Shown: positions 4,508-34,759 of the stretch, piece by piece
Numbering within the stretch: position 1 is the stretch's first letter
Layout of the letters: every line of letters starts with the position of its first letter
Notes under the pieces: model-generated
Seen by the model: only the letters and a program-made list of their open reading frames with translations
Database searches by the model: none
Told to the model about the DNA's origin: nothing
Assembly (NCBI GenBank): GCA_963779615.1
Contig: CAVZZA010000003.1
Location: forward strand, 53,237-117,236
From: an uncultured Nitrososphaeraceae archaeon
Lineage (GTDB): Archaea > Thermoproteota > Nitrososphaeria > Nitrososphaerales > Nitrososphaeraceae
Direction: 5' to 3'
Length of the DNA stretch: 64,000 bases
Translations under genes and position numbers: made by a program

Positions 4508-4870
4508 GTGAATTGCATGACAATTATTGCAATTGTTGCATCTATTTTTACTATTATAGCAGGATTTTATCATATAATGATGGTTCCTGCCAACAATTTT
4601 AACGCCACAATTCTTTTTCTAGTTGGAGGTCTAGCCCAAATTTTTTGGGCAATACCCACTATAAGAAATTGGGGAAGAAAATGGGATTGTATAGGAATTG
4701 CTGGAACTATTGCTTTCATAACCATCTGGGCAATAACAAGGATACCTGATAACCCAATAACTGGGAGGGGAGGACCAATAGGCCAAAATGCAATCATTAT
4801 AGAATTATCTCAAATAATGTTTGTTATTCTATTAGTTATCTTAGTTAGTAAAAGAAAAAAATCAAGATAA
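4508..4870 (+). CDS. Small integral membrane protein (about 4 TM); ATG at 4517 is the likelier start
   Basis: Four hydrophobic segments and a basic C-terminal tail. Confidence 0.7.
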   Translation: MNCMTIIAIVASIFTIIAGFYHIMMVPANNFNATILFLVGGLAQIFWAIPTIRNWGRKWDCIGIAGTIAFITIWAITRIPDNPITGRGGPIGQNAIIIELSQIMFVILLVILVSKRKKSR

Positions 4871-26749: not shown

Positions 26750-28442
26750 ATAGACACAGCAAAATGAATTTTCTTTTTTTTCAGGAGGTTTACCTTTGAA
26801 AGAAGTTTGAATAAAACTAGAGATTCAGGACATATAGAATGATTTTTCTTTTCTTTAATATGTTGAGCCTGCAATATTATGTTGATATTTGTAATGTCCA
26901 TAATTATTTTTAATGCAGAACAAACTATTTATTTAAAACTTACTTTGATTATCTTTACCGCACTTTTGTCTTTTTACTATATCAAACTATAGTATCACTA
27001 AATGAAGCTTGAACTAATATTCTAACTAAACCAAATAGACAACACCACAATTGCAAAAACAATGAAAAATTAATCTTTATACATTCATGGCTGCTCGGCT
27101 TGCGGTATCCTTAGAACGAATCCTTAAGTAATAACAAACGAGTAAATTATGATTTCCGTCAAGGCGTTCCATAAAACAATAAACATTTAGAAAAGATGCC
27201 ACAATATTAAATATAAAATCAAACCCAATAGTACAAAGGATATCAAATAGACATAGAGAAAATTTTTAGGTTAAGAAAATTGACATTGGCCCAAGGGCGC
27301 AAATGGGAATATCCGTTCTTTAAAACACACCCCATTTTTTACAATATCTGTATTTTTTTTAGGAAAAAGGGCATAATTGGTGACAGCAAAACAATATTAA
27401 ACTTTTAACTCGTGGAAATTTATAAGGTTTCCTAAATGAAAGCCAAAAAAGGGGGATGGGTTTTTTGCGTTAATGGGAGGTATCCGTATGTTCCTTTAGT
27501 TCTTGTCGAGAATTAAATTTCTGATCACATTTATCACATGAGAATGTTGCGTCTACGTTAGTAGAACTTTCATCAGATTGTTCTCCGCTATCTACTTTAT
27601 CATAACTCATTGTTTTCAGTTACATATCATAATATATAAGATACCTGCGTCTTTTTTATGGCGATGGACTTGGACGTCATCTTTTTTTATTGAAAAAACA
27701 GCTGTTCTTTACATTTAAATAGAGATGTAGGCCACCTCCAAATTTTCTTCCTCTTTTGTTGTCTTTTCTTTTTGATTCAAGATGTTATAATTCAATTCAT
27801 TTTTGTGACACCTTTTTGTTATCCATTTGTTGTTGTAAACAATGTCTAACTGGATCCTTTGGCACTGGTGAATGGTCCAAAAACCAATGCTTTTTGGACA
27901 GCCTATCATACGGGAGCAAAGAAGTTAGTTGGAACAAGTCTAGCGCACCAGTCCAGCCCATGACCTTTAACAATAGTTCTTTCAAAAGCAATGACAGGAA
28001 TGTGCCACTGCATTCAGAAAAAAATGTACCAGGTAAGGAATTAGTAGATAGTGTAAGGCAGAGGAAATACGTAAAAAGGGAGCAGGCAAGGGAATTGGGT
28101 GAACTTAACTACAGCAAAAATGGCATGGGCATAACCATTCAGGACATGACGTCTTGGATTCAGTTTTCTTAACCATTATAGAATGTTTTGCTGTGAGTTA
28201 TTATGCAACAACCTTTTCAAACTTCCTCTCCTAACTCCATACCGATCATTGCCATCAAACATACGGTTGGAGAGAAAAGTAGAATAGCTCATTGCCGGCC
28301 AAACAAGGATTTGTTAAATGTAATATTTTGGTTCAGGATTTAGCACACCATTTAACAAATGTTAAGTAAAATCAATTTAAAGTTATCATTAATAAATAGA
28401 AAAGTACGGAAAGTTTATCTTTATTATTGCAGGAAATTATGA

Positions 28443-29951
28443 ATGCAGGTAGGAAAAATCTACAGAAATTCCTCATTAGACATAACAAATGAATTAGAAA
28501 AGGCCGAAATAAAGTGGGTAAGACTAAATTTTTGCGATCCTTTGGGTTATCTTCATCAAATTTCTGTCAACAGCAAGGAGATTACAGAGGATGCATTTAA
28601 GCAAGGACTACCAAGGCTCGATGGCAGCTCCATAAAAGGATTTAAGGAGATCTATGAGTCAGATATGCTGCTCAAACCCGACCCTTCCACTTTTGCCATA
28701 TTGCCAGACTATTTTGACAAAAATCACCATCAGACTAGGGACTGCACATATCCTTCAATGGCGGCACGCATGTTTGTCGATATTTATGAGGGATTCGGTG
28801 GAAAAAGGTATTCTAGGGATAGCAGATATATCGCACAAAAAGCCGAAGAGGTATTGAATGACAAAGGCTTTGAGAAGAGTTATTGGGGGCCCGAGTTGGA
28901 ATTTTTTGTTTTCAACAAAATTACTCTCCTACCAAATCCCATGTCCTCCGTAAATTGTTCTGGTGGGTCGGGATACTCTATTGAATCCTCCGAGGCACCG
29001 TGGAACTCCTCCAATGACAGTGGGTACACCATTCCATTTAAGGGAGGCTACTTTCCTGCTCCCCCAGCAGACAGTTTGACAGATTTAAGAGATGAAGTTT
29101 CGGAAACTTTGCAAGAGTTTTTTGGAATAAGAGTTGATGCCCATCACCACGAGGTCGCGACAGCCGGACAATGTGAGATTCAGATGGTATATGATGAGCT
29201 TACACACATGGCAGACAACGTAATTACCTACAAGAAGACAGTAAAGGAAGTCGCGGCCAAACGCCATATGATTGCAAATTTTATGCCAAAACCAATAGCG
29301 CTTGATAATGGTTCTGGTATGCATGTGAGCCAGAGCTTGTGGACAAAAAGGAAGCATGGAAATGACATGAATGTGTTCTTTGATATTTCCGACGAATACG
29401 CAGAGCTAAGCCAAACCGCCCATTACTATATTGGAGGATTAATAGAGCATGCAAGGTCGCTTTGCGCTATAACAAACCCCACAACCAATTCCTACAGGAG
29501 ATTAGTCCCTGGGTATGAAGCCCCAATAAATGTGGCATGGAGTAAAATGAATAGATCGGCCAGTATAAGAATTCCTGCCCACTTCAAAAACATGGAGAGG
29601 CAGAAAAGAATAGAGTACAGAACACCTGATCCAAGTTCAAACATCTACCTTGTGGAGGCTGCGTTGTTGTTGGCAGGTCTTGATGGGATAAACAAAAAAA
29701 TTTCGCCACCAGACCACATAGATAAGGACATTTACAAACTTACAGAACAACAAAAAAGAGAAGGAGGAATCAAGAAATTACCCACTTCATTATTGGACGC
29801 TATTGAGTCTTTGGAATCAGACAATGAGTTTTTGAAGCCAGTTTTTACAAATGACTTCCTTGAAACATACTTCCAGATCAGAAAAGATGAGTATACAGCA
29901 GTTGCAGCAGTTCCCTCACCGAGAGAATTTTATATGTACGGGAATATCTAG
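28443..29951 (+). CDS. glnA: Glutamine synthetase type I
   Basis: DGSSI, GPELEFF, KGGYF, HHHEVAT, FMPKP..NGSGMH, RLVPGYEAP, NRSASIRIP, RIEYRTPDP. Confidence 0.97.
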   Translation: MQVGKIYRNSSLDITNELEKAEIKWVRLNFCDPLGYLHQISVNSKEITEDAFKQGLPRLDGSSIKGFKEIYESDMLLKPDPSTFAILPDYFDKNHHQTRDCTYPSMAARMFVDIYEGFGGKRYSRDSRYIAQKAEEVLNDKGFEKSYWGPELEFFVFNKITLLPNPMSSVNCSGGSGYSIESSEAPWNSSNDSGYTIPFKGGYFPAPPADSLTDLRDEVSETLQEFFGIRVDAHHHEVATAGQCEIQMVYDELTHMADNVITYKKTVKEVAAKRHMIANFMPKPIALDNGSGMHVSQSLWTKRKHGNDMNVFFDISDEYAELSQTAHYYIGGLIEHARSLCAITNPTTNSYRRLVPGYEAPINVAWSKMNRSASIRIPAHFKNMERQKRIEYRTPDPSSNIYLVEAALLLAGLDGINKKISPPDHIDKDIYKLTEQQKREGGIKKLPTSLLDAIESLESDNEFLKPVFTNDFLETYFQIRKDEYTAVAAVPSPREFYMYGNI

Positions 29952-30559
29952 TTAAAGACATGTCGTATCCTAAAGATGTATTGGAGACTAAAGGAAACCT
30001 TCTGAAGGAATCTTCTGCTTCTTCTTATTCTCCTATTCTAACAGACAATATTTCGAATTCTCATTATTATGACAAGACAAAGATAATCCTAGACGCAAGA
30101 AAAGCATTTGATGGGCTTATCCCATATTCAGGATTAGGCGCCAATTCAACGAATGATTATTTTTCATCTATTGATTTTATTGGCGGTGGAAAACTTAAAG
30201 CAGATGAAGACTACAGCGATGTGGATCTATCAGTAACGATTGAGAGCGTTATTTATATGTATGGGAATGTCTAGTTAAAGATATGTCGTATCCTAAAGAT
30301 GTATTGGAGATTAAAAGAAACCTTCTGAAGGAATCTTCTGCTTCTTCTAGTAGTATTTTAGATAATATTTCGAATTCTCATTATTATGACAAGACAAAGA
30401 TAATCCTAGACGCAAGAAAAGCATTTGATGGGCTTATCCCATATTCAGGATTAGGCGCCAATTCAACGAATGATTATTTTTCATCTATTGATTTTATTGG
30501 CGGTGGAAAACTTAAAGCAGATGAAGACTACAGCGATGTGGATCTATCATTAACGATTG
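29921..30559 (+). repeat. Imperfect ~320-bp tandem duplication across the glnA / glutamate synthase junction
   Basis: Unit 1 ~29921-30242, unit 2 ~30242-30559. 30047-30232 and 30364-30549 read as identical; the 5' parts differ by several substitutions and small indels. Confidence 0.95.
29960..30274 (+). CDS. Chimeric 104-aa ORF: N-terminus of the GOGAT FMN subunit fused to a copy of the GlnA C-terminal tail
   Basis: First ~94 aa nearly equal the start of 30283..31752; ends IYMYGNV* versus GlnA FYMYGNI*. Confidence 0.55.
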   Translation: MSYPKDVLETKGNLLKESSASSYSPILTDNISNSHYYDKTKIILDARKAFDGLIPYSGLGANSTNDYFSSIDFIGGGKLKADEDYSDVDLSVTIESVIYMYGNV

Positions 30560-31752
30560 GAGGACGTTACTCAAATAATGTTATAACATCAGACATACCA
30601 TTTTTTGTTTCTGGTATGAGCTATGGTTCATTGAAGCTTCCTGCAAAAATAGCATTGCACATAGCATTAAACAAACTTGCTATTGAAGATGGGATAAGAG
30701 TAATAATGAATACTGGTGAAGGTGGAGCATTGCCATGGGAAATCTATGGCTCGGATACTAAAAATAATAGTATAATGGAATATGCTGAAAGGCTGCTTAG
30801 GGAGCACAATTTAGACAGTATAGATAGAGAACAACTTTTCCAAAGGCATTATCCTTTGGTAGTTCAATATGCGTCAGGCAGATTTTGGAGAGACCCTAAC
30901 TACTTGTTGATACCGGATGCGATAGAAATCAAGATAGGTCAGGGTGCAAAAATAGGACATGGAGGAATGTTACCAGGTTCAAAGGTAACGGAGCTCGTAG
31001 CTGAGAATCGTGGAATACCTCCTTATAGATCAGCTTACTCGCCTTCAAGACATTTAGATATCTTGGGGCCTGAGGATTTGGTTGCCAAGATCCTTGAATT
31101 AAGAGAACTCACTGATTGGAAGGTTCCAATAATTGTAAAGGTAGGGGCTTCAAGAGCTTATGATGACATTCAGATAATACTCAAATCTTATGCAGATTCT
31201 GCTGCCATAGATGGAATTGTGGGAGGTACTGGTGCGGCTCCATGGGAGATTCGAGATATTGTTGGAATAAATACAATACCTTCGATAAGGTTGGGAAAAA
31301 ATGCAATAAATGATTATTATTTGAATAACGAGACAAATGAGTTTAAACTACTCGCCCATGGTGGTATTTGGGATTCGAAACGAATTGCAAAATGCATTGC
31401 TCTTGGAGCAAATGGAGTAGGCATAGGTACAGGGTTTCTCATATCAATGGGGTGTACATTGATTCAAGACTGTTATACTAATACTTGTCCTGCAGGCTTA
31501 ACCGGCTCATTTGAAAAGCTTGATATAGAATTCAGTGTAAAGAGAATAATCAATTACATTAAGGGAACAATGATCGAACTGCAAAATATTGTAGGTTCAT
31601 TAGGGAAGAAAAGAATCAAAGACCTTGGCCGAGAGGATCTTATTGCTACTGATGAAATATCAAGCATAGTATCGGGACTCTATAACAATAAGAATGTAAA
31701 GGCAGAGGATCATAGAATGTATGGAAAAAAAATTGCTGAGTTAAAAAATTGA
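30283..31752 (+). CDS. gltB: Glutamate synthase, FMN-binding subunit (archaeal split GOGAT)
   Basis: SGMSYGS, NTGEGG, QYASGRF, EIKIGQGAKIGHGGMLPG, DGIVGGTGAA, and the [3Fe-4S] motif CTLIQDCYTNTCP. Confidence 0.9.
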   Translation: MSYPKDVLEIKRNLLKESSASSSSILDNISNSHYYDKTKIILDARKAFDGLIPYSGLGANSTNDYFSSIDFIGGGKLKADEDYSDVDLSLTIGGRYSNNVITSDIPFFVSGMSYGSLKLPAKIALHIALNKLAIEDGIRVIMNTGEGGALPWEIYGSDTKNNSIMEYAERLLREHNLDSIDREQLFQRHYPLVVQYASGRFWRDPNYLLIPDAIEIKIGQGAKIGHGGMLPGSKVTELVAENRGIPPYRSAYSPSRHLDILGPEDLVAKILELRELTDWKVPIIVKVGASRAYDDIQIILKSYADSAAIDGIVGGTGAAPWEIRDIVGINTIPSIRLGKNAINDYYLNNETNEFKLLAHGGIWDSKRIAKCIALGANGVGIGTGFLISMGCTLIQDCYTNTCPAGLTGSFEKLDIEFSVKRIINYIKGTMIELQNIVGSLGKKRIKDLGREDLIATDEISSIVSGLYNNKNVKAEDHRMYGKKIAELKN

Positions 31753-32909
31753 ATCCCAAAGAGAAATTTATTATAAGGTCTTCGATCCTAGAATTAGCAG
31801 AAACTGGTACTCCTCGCAGTATTTCAATAGATGAAAAAATAAGAATGGATCACAAAGAAAGAGGAAATGAAAATACAACAACAAACATCTGGGATTGCAT
31901 AACTGCGTTGGGTGCACAATTATCAAGGCCCCCCTATGATCCATATCGGGAGATAATAAATCTTGGAATATCTGTAGGCAGAAGACAATGTCCAACTAAG
32001 GTTATTTTATCTATGCCCCTGATGATTTATGATAACGATAGGAAGATAGAAGAAGCGCCTTTGGAGGCTCTACATGTTGCATTGAATTGGCTTGCTGTTA
32101 ATGACAATATAAATTTAGGATTGGTTTCAGAAAATAGAGTAAACAATAGTAGAAAGTACCCACATTTTAAACGAATAAGCGAAAGATCAATAGGGGAGGA
32201 GGATTATGATTCTGAAGGACTTGTATTACAATACAACAGTGGCAAATCCCTACAATTTCTAACAGAGATGAGGAAAGAATTCAGCGGCCCAATTCTTGTA
32301 GAGATTGATGATGATTTTGAGAGATACATTGGATCATTGCTGGATGCAGGAGCTGATGGAATTATTGCAGATACTGTTAAAATAACAAACAAAGAGAGGT
32401 ACCAAGGAAAACATGCAGTAACAGTAATACACAAGGTACGATGCGCTATAAACCAATACTATGCTGGAAAAGAAAATGATGGTACGTTATTAATGGTTGC
32501 AGGGGACTTGAATAATACAGGCAGAATTGTAAAAGCTGCTGCATTGGGTGCGGATATTATTGGATACTCCACCAGTTTGTTGATTGCAAATGCTGCAATT
32601 CATCATGATAACCCATCCAACATAAATGCAATATCAGAAAGGATCTGTAGACACATTCAGGCCACCAAAGGAGAACTTAAAGGAGTACCTGCCGCATTAG
32701 GATACAGTAATTTCTATAACATATCACCTGCGGATTTGCGTACCTCTAGTATCGAGGCAAGTTTACAGGCGGATATTGCCATAGAAGGAGTGGATAAAAC
32801 TTATCGCCAAATAATTGAGGAATCGACAGGTGAACATGCCATAGAAGAAGGAATGGAAATTGATAAAGATAAAAATCAGAAACTTAGTTGCATATCTATT
32901 GATAAATAG
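31749..32909 (+). CDS. Degenerate paralogue of the glutamate synthase FMN-binding subunit
   Basis: GAQLSRPPYDPYRE, AGADGII and VKAAALGAD match the GltB-FMN barrel; GEGG, GQGAK, GGTG and the three-Cys cluster motif are absent. Overlaps the upstream stop (TTGA). Confidence 0.7.
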   Translation: MNPKEKFIIRSSILELAETGTPRSISIDEKIRMDHKERGNENTTTNIWDCITALGAQLSRPPYDPYREIINLGISVGRRQCPTKVILSMPLMIYDNDRKIEEAPLEALHVALNWLAVNDNINLGLVSENRVNNSRKYPHFKRISERSIGEEDYDSEGLVLQYNSGKSLQFLTEMRKEFSGPILVEIDDDFERYIGSLLDAGADGIIADTVKITNKERYQGKHAVTVIHKVRCAINQYYAGKENDGTLLMVAGDLNNTGRIVKAAALGADIIGYSTSLLIANAAIHHDNPSNINAISERICRHIQATKGELKGVPAALGYSNFYNISPADLRTSSIEASLQADIAIEGVDKTYRQIIEESTGEHAIEEGMEIDKDKNQKLSCISIDK

Positions 32910-32931
32910 TTAAGGAGGGGACGGAAGGAAC

Positions 32932-33789
32932 ATGTGTGGCATTTGCGGAATTATATTAAAAGATCACAATCCAAACTTTTCAATCGGTGCTCTGCTTTAT
33001 CAGATGATGGAAGGCCAGCAGGTAAGAGCTCAAGATAGTGCAGGCATAGCCATTTTTAATAATGGAAATAGAGGTAATAACGATTCACTATATAATCTTA
33101 CCTACCTTATGAAATCTCCTACTGGATACGAGTTGAGAGAAGAAAAAAGGCCTTTAAATGAACAAGATCGACGTGCTTCCAGATTAATCAAGGATGATCG
33201 GGTTTCTATAATAGGTTGTTCAAAAGAAATGAAGTTGGTCAAAGATGTAGGCCTTGTAAGAGATCTTGATAAAAAATATGATATAAAATCAATGCAAGGA
33301 TCTCACGGTATTGGACATTTAAGAATAGCAACGAGCAGTAGAGTTGACATGCATAATGCCCATCCATTCAGTACTACAGTCATGCCCGATATAGCAGTTG
33401 TGCATAATGGAGAAATCACAAATTATTCCAAATTAAAGAATTCGCTTGAGATTCAAGGATACCCTTTCTATTCTAATTGTGATTCAGAGGTCATAGCTGT
33501 TTTTCTTGCTGACCAGTTGTTAAAGCATGGAGACATAGAAAGGGCACATAATGAATTTATTCAAAAAGCCGATGGGCCATTTACCTATATTGCTGCTACA
33601 AATCATTCATTATCATTGATAAGGGATAGATTTGGAACAAGAAAGGGGATTGTAGGATACAATCCAGGAGGAGAGGGCCATCCTGCATTCTGGGCAATGG
33701 CAACGGATCTATCTGCATTAGATATTGTCGGAGCTAACGAAGATGTGAAAGCAGCGTCACCAGGCAAATCACTAATTTTCACAGTATAA
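32932..33789 (+). CDS. Glutamate synthase, class II glutamine amidotransferase subunit
   Basis: N-terminal nucleophile MCGICG, R-x-QDSAG, GHLRIAT, HPF, HNGEITNY, DSEVI; ggaggg SD upstream. Confidence 0.9.
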   Translation: MCGICGIILKDHNPNFSIGALLYQMMEGQQVRAQDSAGIAIFNNGNRGNNDSLYNLTYLMKSPTGYELREEKRPLNEQDRRASRLIKDDRVSIIGCSKEMKLVKDVGLVRDLDKKYDIKSMQGSHGIGHLRIATSSRVDMHNAHPFSTTVMPDIAVVHNGEITNYSKLKNSLEIQGYPFYSNCDSEVIAVFLADQLLKHGDIERAHNEFIQKADGPFTYIAATNHSLSLIRDRFGTRKGIVGYNPGGEGHPAFWAMATDLSALDIVGANEDVKAASPGKSLIFTV

Positions 33790-33829
33790 TAAATAAATTA
33801 ATAAAGCCATATCTAAAAAACAAAGACAA

Positions 33830-34759
33830 ATGTGTTATACGTTAGATATCGATGAATTACGAGCAATAGTAAAGGACATAGGCTCAAAGGTATCTAATCC
33901 AGATGCACAATTTGAAAGTGTCAACAACGCTTTTGAGAAGAATTTTGGAACAAAACTTCCTTATGGATTAAAACGCGCATCTATAGAAAAATTTGGGGAT
34001 GTTGCAAGTTCTCCCCTAATAATGGAAAGGGCAATTAACTCCATAATAAAAAAAAAGGTGGCAGCGGGTGAAACTAAAATCATACTAAAAAATCCAAAAG
34101 CCCTTTACAGAATAGGGATACTTGGTTATGATGAGACTATAAAATTAGACATGACAGTGGAAGGAAATGTTGGCAATTTTTTTGGCGCATTTTGCAACTT
34201 TGATGGAACCTGGATAGTTAATGGAAACGCCGAGAATGGATTGGCGGACAAGGGGTACAAAGGAAAAATAATTGTGGAAGGGTTTGCCACAGAACTTGCA
34301 TGCCAAAACAATCAAGCAACCAAATTCAGTAATGGTGTCGATCTCTTGATTAAAAAAGGGTGTATGGAGAGAGCTATGGGTCAAGCCAGGGGAGGAAGGT
34401 TGGTAACTTTTGGCGCAGGATACAATTCTGGTCTGTACATGTCAGGGGGAGTATTGCTTAATTTGGGCCTACCGGGAGAACTGTTTGGCCCTGGAATGGT
34501 TGGTGGCGTTATTTATTCTCCTGAAGGAACTACTGCAGCAGACGGTGCGGTTATCAATAAATTAAAGGTGGAAGATTATTCAATTATTAAAGAAACACTA
34601 CGGGTATTTGAAAATGAGTTACGGATAGAGCAACTAGATAATTTATCCATGGAAAACCCGACAGTGTATTTAACCAACAATGTTATTAAAGATAATCAAA
34701 AGTATAACATAAGTGACTTTATCAAAATAGTCCCAAATATAACCAATTCTCATAACTAG
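33830..34759 (+). CDS. Glutamate synthase, GXGXG (beta-helix) subunit
   Basis: GNVGNFFGAF, GNAENGLAD, GQARGG, GAGYNSGLYMSGG, GPGMVGG repeats. Confidence 0.85.
   Translation: MCYTLDIDELRAIVKDIGSKVSNPDAQFESVNNAFEKNFGTKLPYGLKRASIEKFGDVASSPLIMERAINSIIKKKVAAGETKIILKNPKALYRIGILGYDETIKLDMTVEGNVGNFFGAFCNFDGTWIVNGNAENGLADKGYKGKIIVEGFATELACQNNQATKFSNGVDLLIKKGCMERAMGQARGGRLVTFGAGYNSGLYMSGGVLLNLGLPGELFGPGMVGGVIYSPEGTTAADGAVINKLKVEDYSIIKETLRVFENELRIEQLDNLSMENPTVYLTNNVIKDNQKYNISDFIKIVPNITNSHN

Follow-up and report, generated by a model that had tools for sequence, protein, structure and literature searches.

Partial tandem duplications that leave gene remnants behind are a textbook outcome of illegitimate recombination, and such duplications are usually short-lived (cf. 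the reviews of Reams and Roth). Exchange between duplicates over much longer times is described for the copies of mtrA inside the mtr operon of Methanococcales and Methanomicrobiales, where gene conversion has been long-lasting (PMC4632066), and a survey of concerted evolution in prokaryotes calls it rare but long-lasting (PMC6053082). A four-subunit archaeal glutamate synthase (GOGAT) that adjoins glutamine synthetase (GS) is described for Candidatus (Ca.) Nitrosocosmicus arcticus and Ca. N. oleophilus (PMC6657660, PMC10432482). Here we analyse such a locus in a 64,000-nucleotide (nt) stretch of DNA, called the window below, from an uncultured Nitrososphaeraceae archaeon, a soil ammonia oxidiser (GenBank assembly GCA_963779615.1, contig CAVZZA010000003.1; C3:53237-117236 of a 3.17-Mb genome in 5 contigs, a metagenome-style assembly with 2.3% contamination). 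In it the end of the GS gene glnA, the spacer behind it and the start of the gene for the GOGAT flavin mononucleotide (FMN)-binding subunit occur twice in tandem, and between the two parent genes lies a chimeric open reading frame (ORF), ORF1. Positions are those of the window unless stated otherwise.

The locus is like partial tandem duplications made by illegitimate recombination in its head-to-tail copies, its single low-homology junction, its intact parent genes, its truncated ORF and its confinement to one species, but it differs from typical ones in having persisted over ~11% synonymous divergence and in having a remnant that is in frame with the tail of the upstream gene and reuses the stop codon of that gene. 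As far as the published description of mtrA goes, the two cases share an archaeal in-operon duplicate whose copies resemble each other within one genome more closely than orthologues do across lineages, and a mosaic of converted and unconverted segments; the mtrA copies, however, are both complete and functional and have been converted over a far longer time scale, whereas here one partner is a 95-codon fragment, the time scale lies within a species and the unconverted part decays. Gene order is the same as in Ca. N. arcticus and Ca. N. oleophilus (glnA, FMN subunit, paralogue, amidotransferase and GXGXG subunit, an operon found in about half of the genus), although the passages describing the operon in those two archaea mention no duplication (PMC6657660, PMC10432482). 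The case is a new instance of known processes, and what is unusual about it is its persistence, its conversion tracts that can be followed at the level of single bases, and its reuse of an upstream tail and stop.

A repeat search and pairwise alignment place the two copies next to each other, head to tail, with only one novel junction (Table 1), as an earlier note made from the letters of this DNA had claimed. The left end of the duplicated unit is the final 23 nt of glnA, and the full FMN-subunit gene retains 31 nt of native upstream sequence. Measured from start to start, the copies are offset by 323 nt up to a 6-nt indel and by 317 nt beyond it. In the alignment the first 97 nt of the unit contain 5 mismatches; an island follows that is 21 nt long in copy 1 and 15 nt in copy 2 and is barely alignable, and the next 186 nt contain none (5/97 versus 0/186, Fisher p = 0.0044 within the window), with one further mismatch between this identical run and the junction. 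The change from a diverged 5' part to 186 identical bases that the earlier note had seen is real, and all else that the note says about the sequence holds as well. Searched against the whole genome, ORF1 finds exactly two matches, which lie side by side and are far above chance.

Table 1. Coordinates of the duplicated segments and of the genes around them (positions in the window).
Feature	Position	Strand	Description and basis
Copy 1 of the unit (323 nt)	29929..30251	+	glnA tail, 8-nt spacer, GOGAT codons 1 to about 96; repeat search and pairwise alignment
Copy 2 of the unit (317 nt)	30252..30568	+	Second glnA tail, which has become the 3' end of ORF1, then 8-nt spacer and functional GOGAT start ("B-type" head)
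Hypervariable island, copy 1	30026..30046	+	Ser-rich linker, "A-type" head; not homogenised with copy 2 (30349-30363); 6-nt length difference
Gene-conversion tract, copy 1 (186 nt)	30047..30232	+	Identical to 30364-30549; lineage-specific substitutions in both copies
Gene-conversion tract, copy 2	30364..30549	+	Partner of 30047-30232
Novel junction	30233..30256	+	GOGAT codon ~96 joined to glnA tail; same in all 15 contigs
ORF1 (104 residues)	29960..30274	+	N-terminal remnant of GOGAT FMN subunit, continuing in frame into the final 6 codons of GlnA and the second copy of its stop
glnA (glutamine synthetase, 502 residues), intact	28443..29951	+	ORF list; Pfam Gln-synt_N + Gln-synt_C, E = 1e-117
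Glutamate synthase FMN-binding subunit, full length (489 residues)	30283..31752	+	Pfam Glu_synthase, E = 3e-80
Remainder of operon	31749..34759	+	386-residue paralogue, amidotransferase subunit, GXGXG subunit
Class-II amidotransferase subunit	32932-33789	+	Family matches
GXGXG subunit	33830-34759	+	Family matches

The junction, located at about 30243-30252, reads ACGATT-GAGAGCGTTA to the left of the join and TTTATATG to the right of it; compared with the parental GOGAT sequence ACGATTGGAGGACGTTA, 1 nt has been lost and two bases have been substituted, and the junction 27-mer is GATTGAGAGCGTTATTTATATGTATGG. The two GOGAT starts are 30283-29960 = 323 nt apart, which is 2 mod 3, and the reading frame passes from the GOGAT head into the glnA tail, giving the chimeric protein that the earlier note had read here: it ends in ...DLSVTIESVIYMYGNV (also written ...TIESVIYMYGNV) before its stop, its last residues being YMYGNV, and GlnA itself ends in ...EFYMYGNI. 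The stop of ORF1 lies 8 nt before the GOGAT ATG, the same spacing as that between glnA and ORF1. As read from the sequence, a unit without the 1-nt loss would be 324 nt long, and ORF1 would then run stop-free into GOGAT and give an N-terminally duplicated subunit; the present frame may have been selected (for instance because it keeps translational coupling or avoids a deformed subunit), or it may be luck, for which the chance is 1 in 3. The spacer from the glnA stop to the ORF1 start is prone to indels, being 8 nt with a TAG stop in the window (29949-29962), 2 nt with a TAA stop in the lineage of the homologous locus L023 (2496-2503) and 4 nt in L040, and the spacer from the ORF1 stop to the GOGAT start is 8, 7 or 5 nt.

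Independent assemblies were compared to test the reality of this structure, by exact-protein look-up, through the members of the 90% protein cluster of ORF1 and by a junction-pattern search. The junction is present in 15 contigs, namely that of the window, one from ENA, 12 from JGI (reached via the ORF1 sequence) and one found by its DNA pattern; together they span at least 14 other samples and both long-read-style and short-read assemblies, and all 15 have ACGATT-GAGAGCGTTATTTATATGTATGG, odd bases included. A search for the exact junction pattern gave 0 matches in genome contigs beyond the window's own genome and, in metagenome contigs, only the 1 additional contig already counted. The ENA contig (299.8 kb, with a Flye-style name) carries the exact 104-residue product and matches the window at 99.64% identity along 6.3 kb, with 17 single-nucleotide polymorphisms (SNPs) and six 1-nt insertions and with no difference in 29558-30993. 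The 12 JGI contigs have the gene order glnA, small ORF, FMN subunit, and the protein cluster also holds other 104- and 105-residue forms from JGI metagenomes. Lineage-specific SNPs and indels surround the junction in these contigs, which fall into five lineages that are 2.0-3.1% apart over 1300 nt of glnA, with a proportion of synonymous differences (pS) of about 0.11; the lineages were recovered by searching for ORF1, so this estimate of persistence is biased.

Beyond the species, the duplication is absent from 33 other Ca. Nitrosocosmicus species representatives. The N-terminal head itself is present in 16 of these 33 species, single copy in every one; it follows glnA directly in all nine congeneric species examined, and the nearest congeneric head has only about 83% DNA identity. 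Among relatives, the duplication described in the earlier note is present in five lineages of its own species and in none of the 33 species beyond it. Since the same odd junction occurs in 15 contigs of five lineages, an assembly chimera can be set aside and a single origin is indicated, and since none of the 33 other species has the duplication, its origin is species-specific. We conclude that the duplication is almost certainly a genuine genomic feature and that it is one old event, limited to one species-level clade, carried by each strain of this species that was recovered, and older than the present diversity of that clade.

When copies 1 and 2 from every contig are aligned together, the window and the L023 lineage differ at 8 bases of the 186-nt tract, and 6 of the 8 differ in both copies (AAT/CAT, GAC/GAT, CC/TT, GGC/GGT, GAC/GAT); the two copy-private differences are both less than about 10 nt away from the island. 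At the CC/TT site some strains are mixed: L027, L029 and L039 combine TT in copy 1 with CC in copy 2, and the arrangement is reversed in L031. Copy 1 of L040 has a copy-2-type head through the whole island and keeps a copy-1-specific base in the spacer. Copy-1-private changes are found only near the ends of homology; position 30233, for example, is G in the window, C in L031 and L032 and T elsewhere. Because substitutions in the tract hit both copies and the ends of the conversion tracts differ among strains, the mosaic is very probably the work of concerted evolution by gene conversion after a single duplication.

In the copy-1 island (30020-30060) some 10 of 36 nt differ between the window and L023, compared with a pS of about 0.11, and the island is hypervariable genus-wide. 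Its two haplotypes contradict the glnA tree, in that L031 carries the same island as L023 and a different one from its sister L032, which suggests either recombination between strains or multi-nucleotide mutation in the Ser-rich linker. Import of the A-type island from another species was considered and rejected, as none of the relatives has an island resembling it.

Five or six JGI contigs of the same series have glnA followed directly by a 500-residue FMN subunit with a copy-1-type head; the samples with such contigs are 3300075615, 3300075596, 3300078729, 3300075562 and 3300075637. To judge from its sequence, this single-copy form is the exact product expected of recombination between the identical tracts; it is equally expected from a short-read assembler that skips the loop. 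A linkage test of single-copy against duplicated JGI contigs gave no SNP that separates them, and the flanks of these A-type full-length genes are identical to those of the duplicated contigs. Assemblers do struggle at this site, since several short-read contigs break inside copy 2.

The earlier note had offered a two-strain assembly chimera or recombination between two divergent alleles as the source of the mosaic. An artefact of this kind (or an unmerged overlap) would fit a genome of this assembly style and contamination level and the crowding of mismatches into the 20 nt that precede the junction, much as low-quality contig ends would show; it is nonetheless extremely improbable, given that 14 further contigs from different samples, assemblers and assembly styles have the same junction with the same odd bases, and we reject it. 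The allelic explanation takes the A-type and B-type heads to be older than the duplication, which would then have arisen by unequal recombination between chromosomes carrying them. Full-length A-type (500 residues) and B-type (498 residues) genes do both occur in metagenomes, the island does differ between the copies far more than its flanks, and the island haplotypes do depart from the glnA tree. Each A-type full-length gene is, however, what deletion between the repeats is expected to produce, down to flanks that are those of the duplicated contigs; the contigs examined include no independent single-copy A lineage and no B-type head directly after glnA, and the island is hypervariable across the genus in any case. 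Changes in the tract that appear in both copies at once are impossible from recombination between alleles at the origin. We consider this explanation very unlikely; divergent alleles are not needed, as both copies share lineage substitutions, the tract ends vary and L040 has a copy-2-type head in copy 1.

A different question is whether ORF1 is itself a selected small protein or translational device, a reading that we hold to be unlikely. It might act as a free N-terminal segment of the FMN subunit, influencing how the four-part GOGAT is assembled or making contact with GS, or as an upstream ORF that sets the translation of GOGAT by coupling, through termination 8 nt ahead of its start; in its fuller form, which we think quite unlikely, the duplication is kept by selection, ORF1 being a translated 104-residue "decoy head" of the FMN subunit or coupling upstream ORF that tunes the amount of FMN subunit produced or assembled in relation to GS in this single species, with the 1-nt loss itself selected so that ORF1 stops just where glnA does. 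Several observations favour selection and weigh against regarding ORF1 as a by-product. ORF1 is open in all five lineages, across a pS of about 0.11; all 15 contigs have its junction unchanged, and its stop/start spacing resembles the native spacing of glnA and GOGAT; the 1-nt loss that sets its frame could have been selected, as a 324-nt unit would fuse it to GOGAT; the duplication persists over this divergence although ~190 identical bases flank it and make it prone to recombinational loss; the unique junction and tail (~33 nt) have about 3 changes across lineages versus a rough neutral expectation of ~9; and codons 37-101 have a ratio of nonsynonymous to synonymous proportions (pN/pS) of 0-0.06, which is how a selected small protein would look. 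That ~27 private substitutions brought no premature stop has a probability of about 0.3 by chance (a rough estimate) and is not significant; the small number of changes in the junction and tail may reflect overlap with the region upstream of the real GOGAT start; and gene conversion fully accounts for codons 37-101, whose low pN/pS would mirror selection on the real gene.

By Nei-Gojobori counts, ORF1 codons 1-36, the part that escapes conversion, have a pN of 0.05-0.15 and a pN/pS of 0.29-0.66, from only 4-12 nonsynonymous and 4-6 synonymous changes per pair; the same codons of the functional copy have a pN of 0.012-0.025, so that ORF1 is about five-fold higher, and pN/pS in glnA is 0.04-0.12. 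The replacements in ORF1 include radical ones at genus-invariant residues (I10T, R12G, L8S, L14P, Y3D), and its unconverted codons appear to evolve almost neutrally. Its last residues vary by lineage (NV, NI, SSS), a 1-nt deletion in L031 and L032 having turned the GlnA-like end YMYGN[IV] into YMYGSSS, and contigs without the duplication occur in the same populations. ORF1 has no match in Pfam or NCBIfam, including the GS domains (PF00120/PF03951), and it is a fragment without its barrel: the full FMN subunit matches GltB residues ~853-1204 of 1ea0, 2vdc and 1llw, its PF01645 match starts at residue 104, and its first alignable strand, FFVSGMSYG (residues 107-115), aligns with GltB 853-861 of 1ea0/2vdc, the start of the FMN-domain match, whereas the GOGAT-derived part of ORF1 ends at ~residue 96, about 10 residues short of this first barrel strand. 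Because it ends before the barrel, the predicted product would have no FMN (beta/alpha)8 barrel, cofactor site or substrate site and no catalytic capacity. AlphaFold2 gave mean confidence scores (predicted local distance difference test) of 33 for the full FMN subunit and 49 for ORF1, with alignments of only 5 and 8 close relatives, respectively, too low for the models to be informative on whether the head folds by itself.

In type I GS the C-terminal "helical thong" locks the two hexameric rings together, as in the E. coli and Salmonella GS structures, and the earlier note had proposed that the chimera could be a GS-tail mimic or a GS-GOGAT tether. ORF1 is like the thong in its ending, which consists of the six C-terminal residues of the GlnA encoded next to it (YMYGN[IV]), but these 6 residues are all that it shares: the conserved EF that precedes them in GlnA is VI in ORF1, two lineages have YMYGSSS, and there is no Gln-synt_C match. 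With no family match and near-neutral codons besides, the proposal finds no support.

Returning to duplication followed by gene conversion, with an ORF1 that has no selected function of its own, we regard this account as a whole as likely and read the history as follows. One illegitimate (non-homologous) recombination or replication-slippage event in an ancestor of this Ca. Nitrosocosmicus species duplicated ~320 nt in tandem, from 23 nt before the end of the glnA stop through FMN-subunit codon ~96. Nothing was destroyed by it, glnA remaining whole and GOGAT keeping its own start and native upstream sequence. The 1-nt loss at the junction puts the remnant of the GOGAT head into the GlnA frame, where it stops at the duplicated glnA stop, and the resulting distance of 8 nt to the real GOGAT start reproduces the native stop/start geometry. 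Repeated gene conversion across the central ~190 nt followed; the functional copy is under purifying selection and the centre of the remnant matches it, the direction of transfer probably being from the functional gene to the remnant. Segments near the ends of homology and the island with the 6-nt indel escape conversion and, in the remnant, drift almost neutrally. If the identical tracts recombined with each other, the duplication would be lost and one gene with a copy-1 head would remain. Since the original GOGAT initiation site belongs to ORF1, translation of ORF1 is probable, and we infer that its product is a tolerated, non-catalytic fragment; most likely it is a harmless by-product and not a new regulator.

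The duplication lies at the head of a co-oriented block of five genes after glnA, led by the glutamate synthase FMN subunit, and the 8-nt spacers suggest that glnA, ORF1 and GOGAT are co-transcribed. The 386-residue paralogue behind the FMN subunit has no family match (Pfam, NCBIfam); its gene is called from a TTG and overlaps the FMN-subunit stop by 4 nt (31749-31752), which suggests tight coupling along the operon. The reading of the operon as GS-GOGAT comes from family matches, and a GmaS/N-methylglutamate-synthase-like system is the other candidate; IMG labels both the FMN subunit and ORF1 "methylamine-glutamate N-methyltransferase subunit C". The genome has three GS paralogues by PF00120 matches, the operon glnA being one and the other two lying outside the window (C1:518824-519921 and C1:20840-21979). 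An Rfam scan of 28000-32000 gave no match, a scan for bacterial promoters and terminators (models ill-suited to archaea) gave counts no higher than in shuffled sequences, and the predicted RNA folds of the two initiation regions are no more stable than those of shuffles.

Some of the other contigs have features of their own. The ENA contig (L022; ERZ25039516 contig_10701) has its six single-base insertions relative to the window at locus positions 47, 1668 and 4743-4756; they split glnA into pieces of 67 and 453 residues, shorten the FMN subunit to 478 residues and look like long-read consensus errors, and 11 of its 17 SNPs are G>A or C>T. L026 (JGI 3300076617) is identical to L023 except that ~27 SNPs are crowded into a stretch of 260 nt, 423-681 nt upstream of the glnA tail; either this stretch was acquired from a different lineage by recombination or the short-read contig is chimeric. 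In L043 (related metagenome-assembled genome MFD07386.bin.2.15, contig_24030; locus 2501-2872) the reading frame of the FMN subunit is cut off after 124 codons, yet the tblastn match extends over residues 1-471; a frameshift in a long-read assembly is the probable cause. Elsewhere in the window's genome there is another tandem duplication (C5:601364-601863, two copies of 250 nt, 100% identical), other tandem repeats with two copies, 180-440 nt in size, are located at C1:412796, C3:1083882, C5:354160 and C5:829737, and the genome is also rich in multi-copy short-period arrays.

Annotators should not follow IMG in naming ORF1 as a subunit of glutamate synthase or N-methylglutamate synthase, and when this species is assembled from short reads, the duplication may be collapsed or the contig may break there. 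The locus gives no present pointer to a new regulatory mechanism of nitrogen assimilation. What it does is settle an odd feature as genuine biology rather than mis-assembly, and provide a small, well-resolved archaeal example of concerted evolution between a working gene and a truncated tandem copy of it, with tract boundaries at base resolution.

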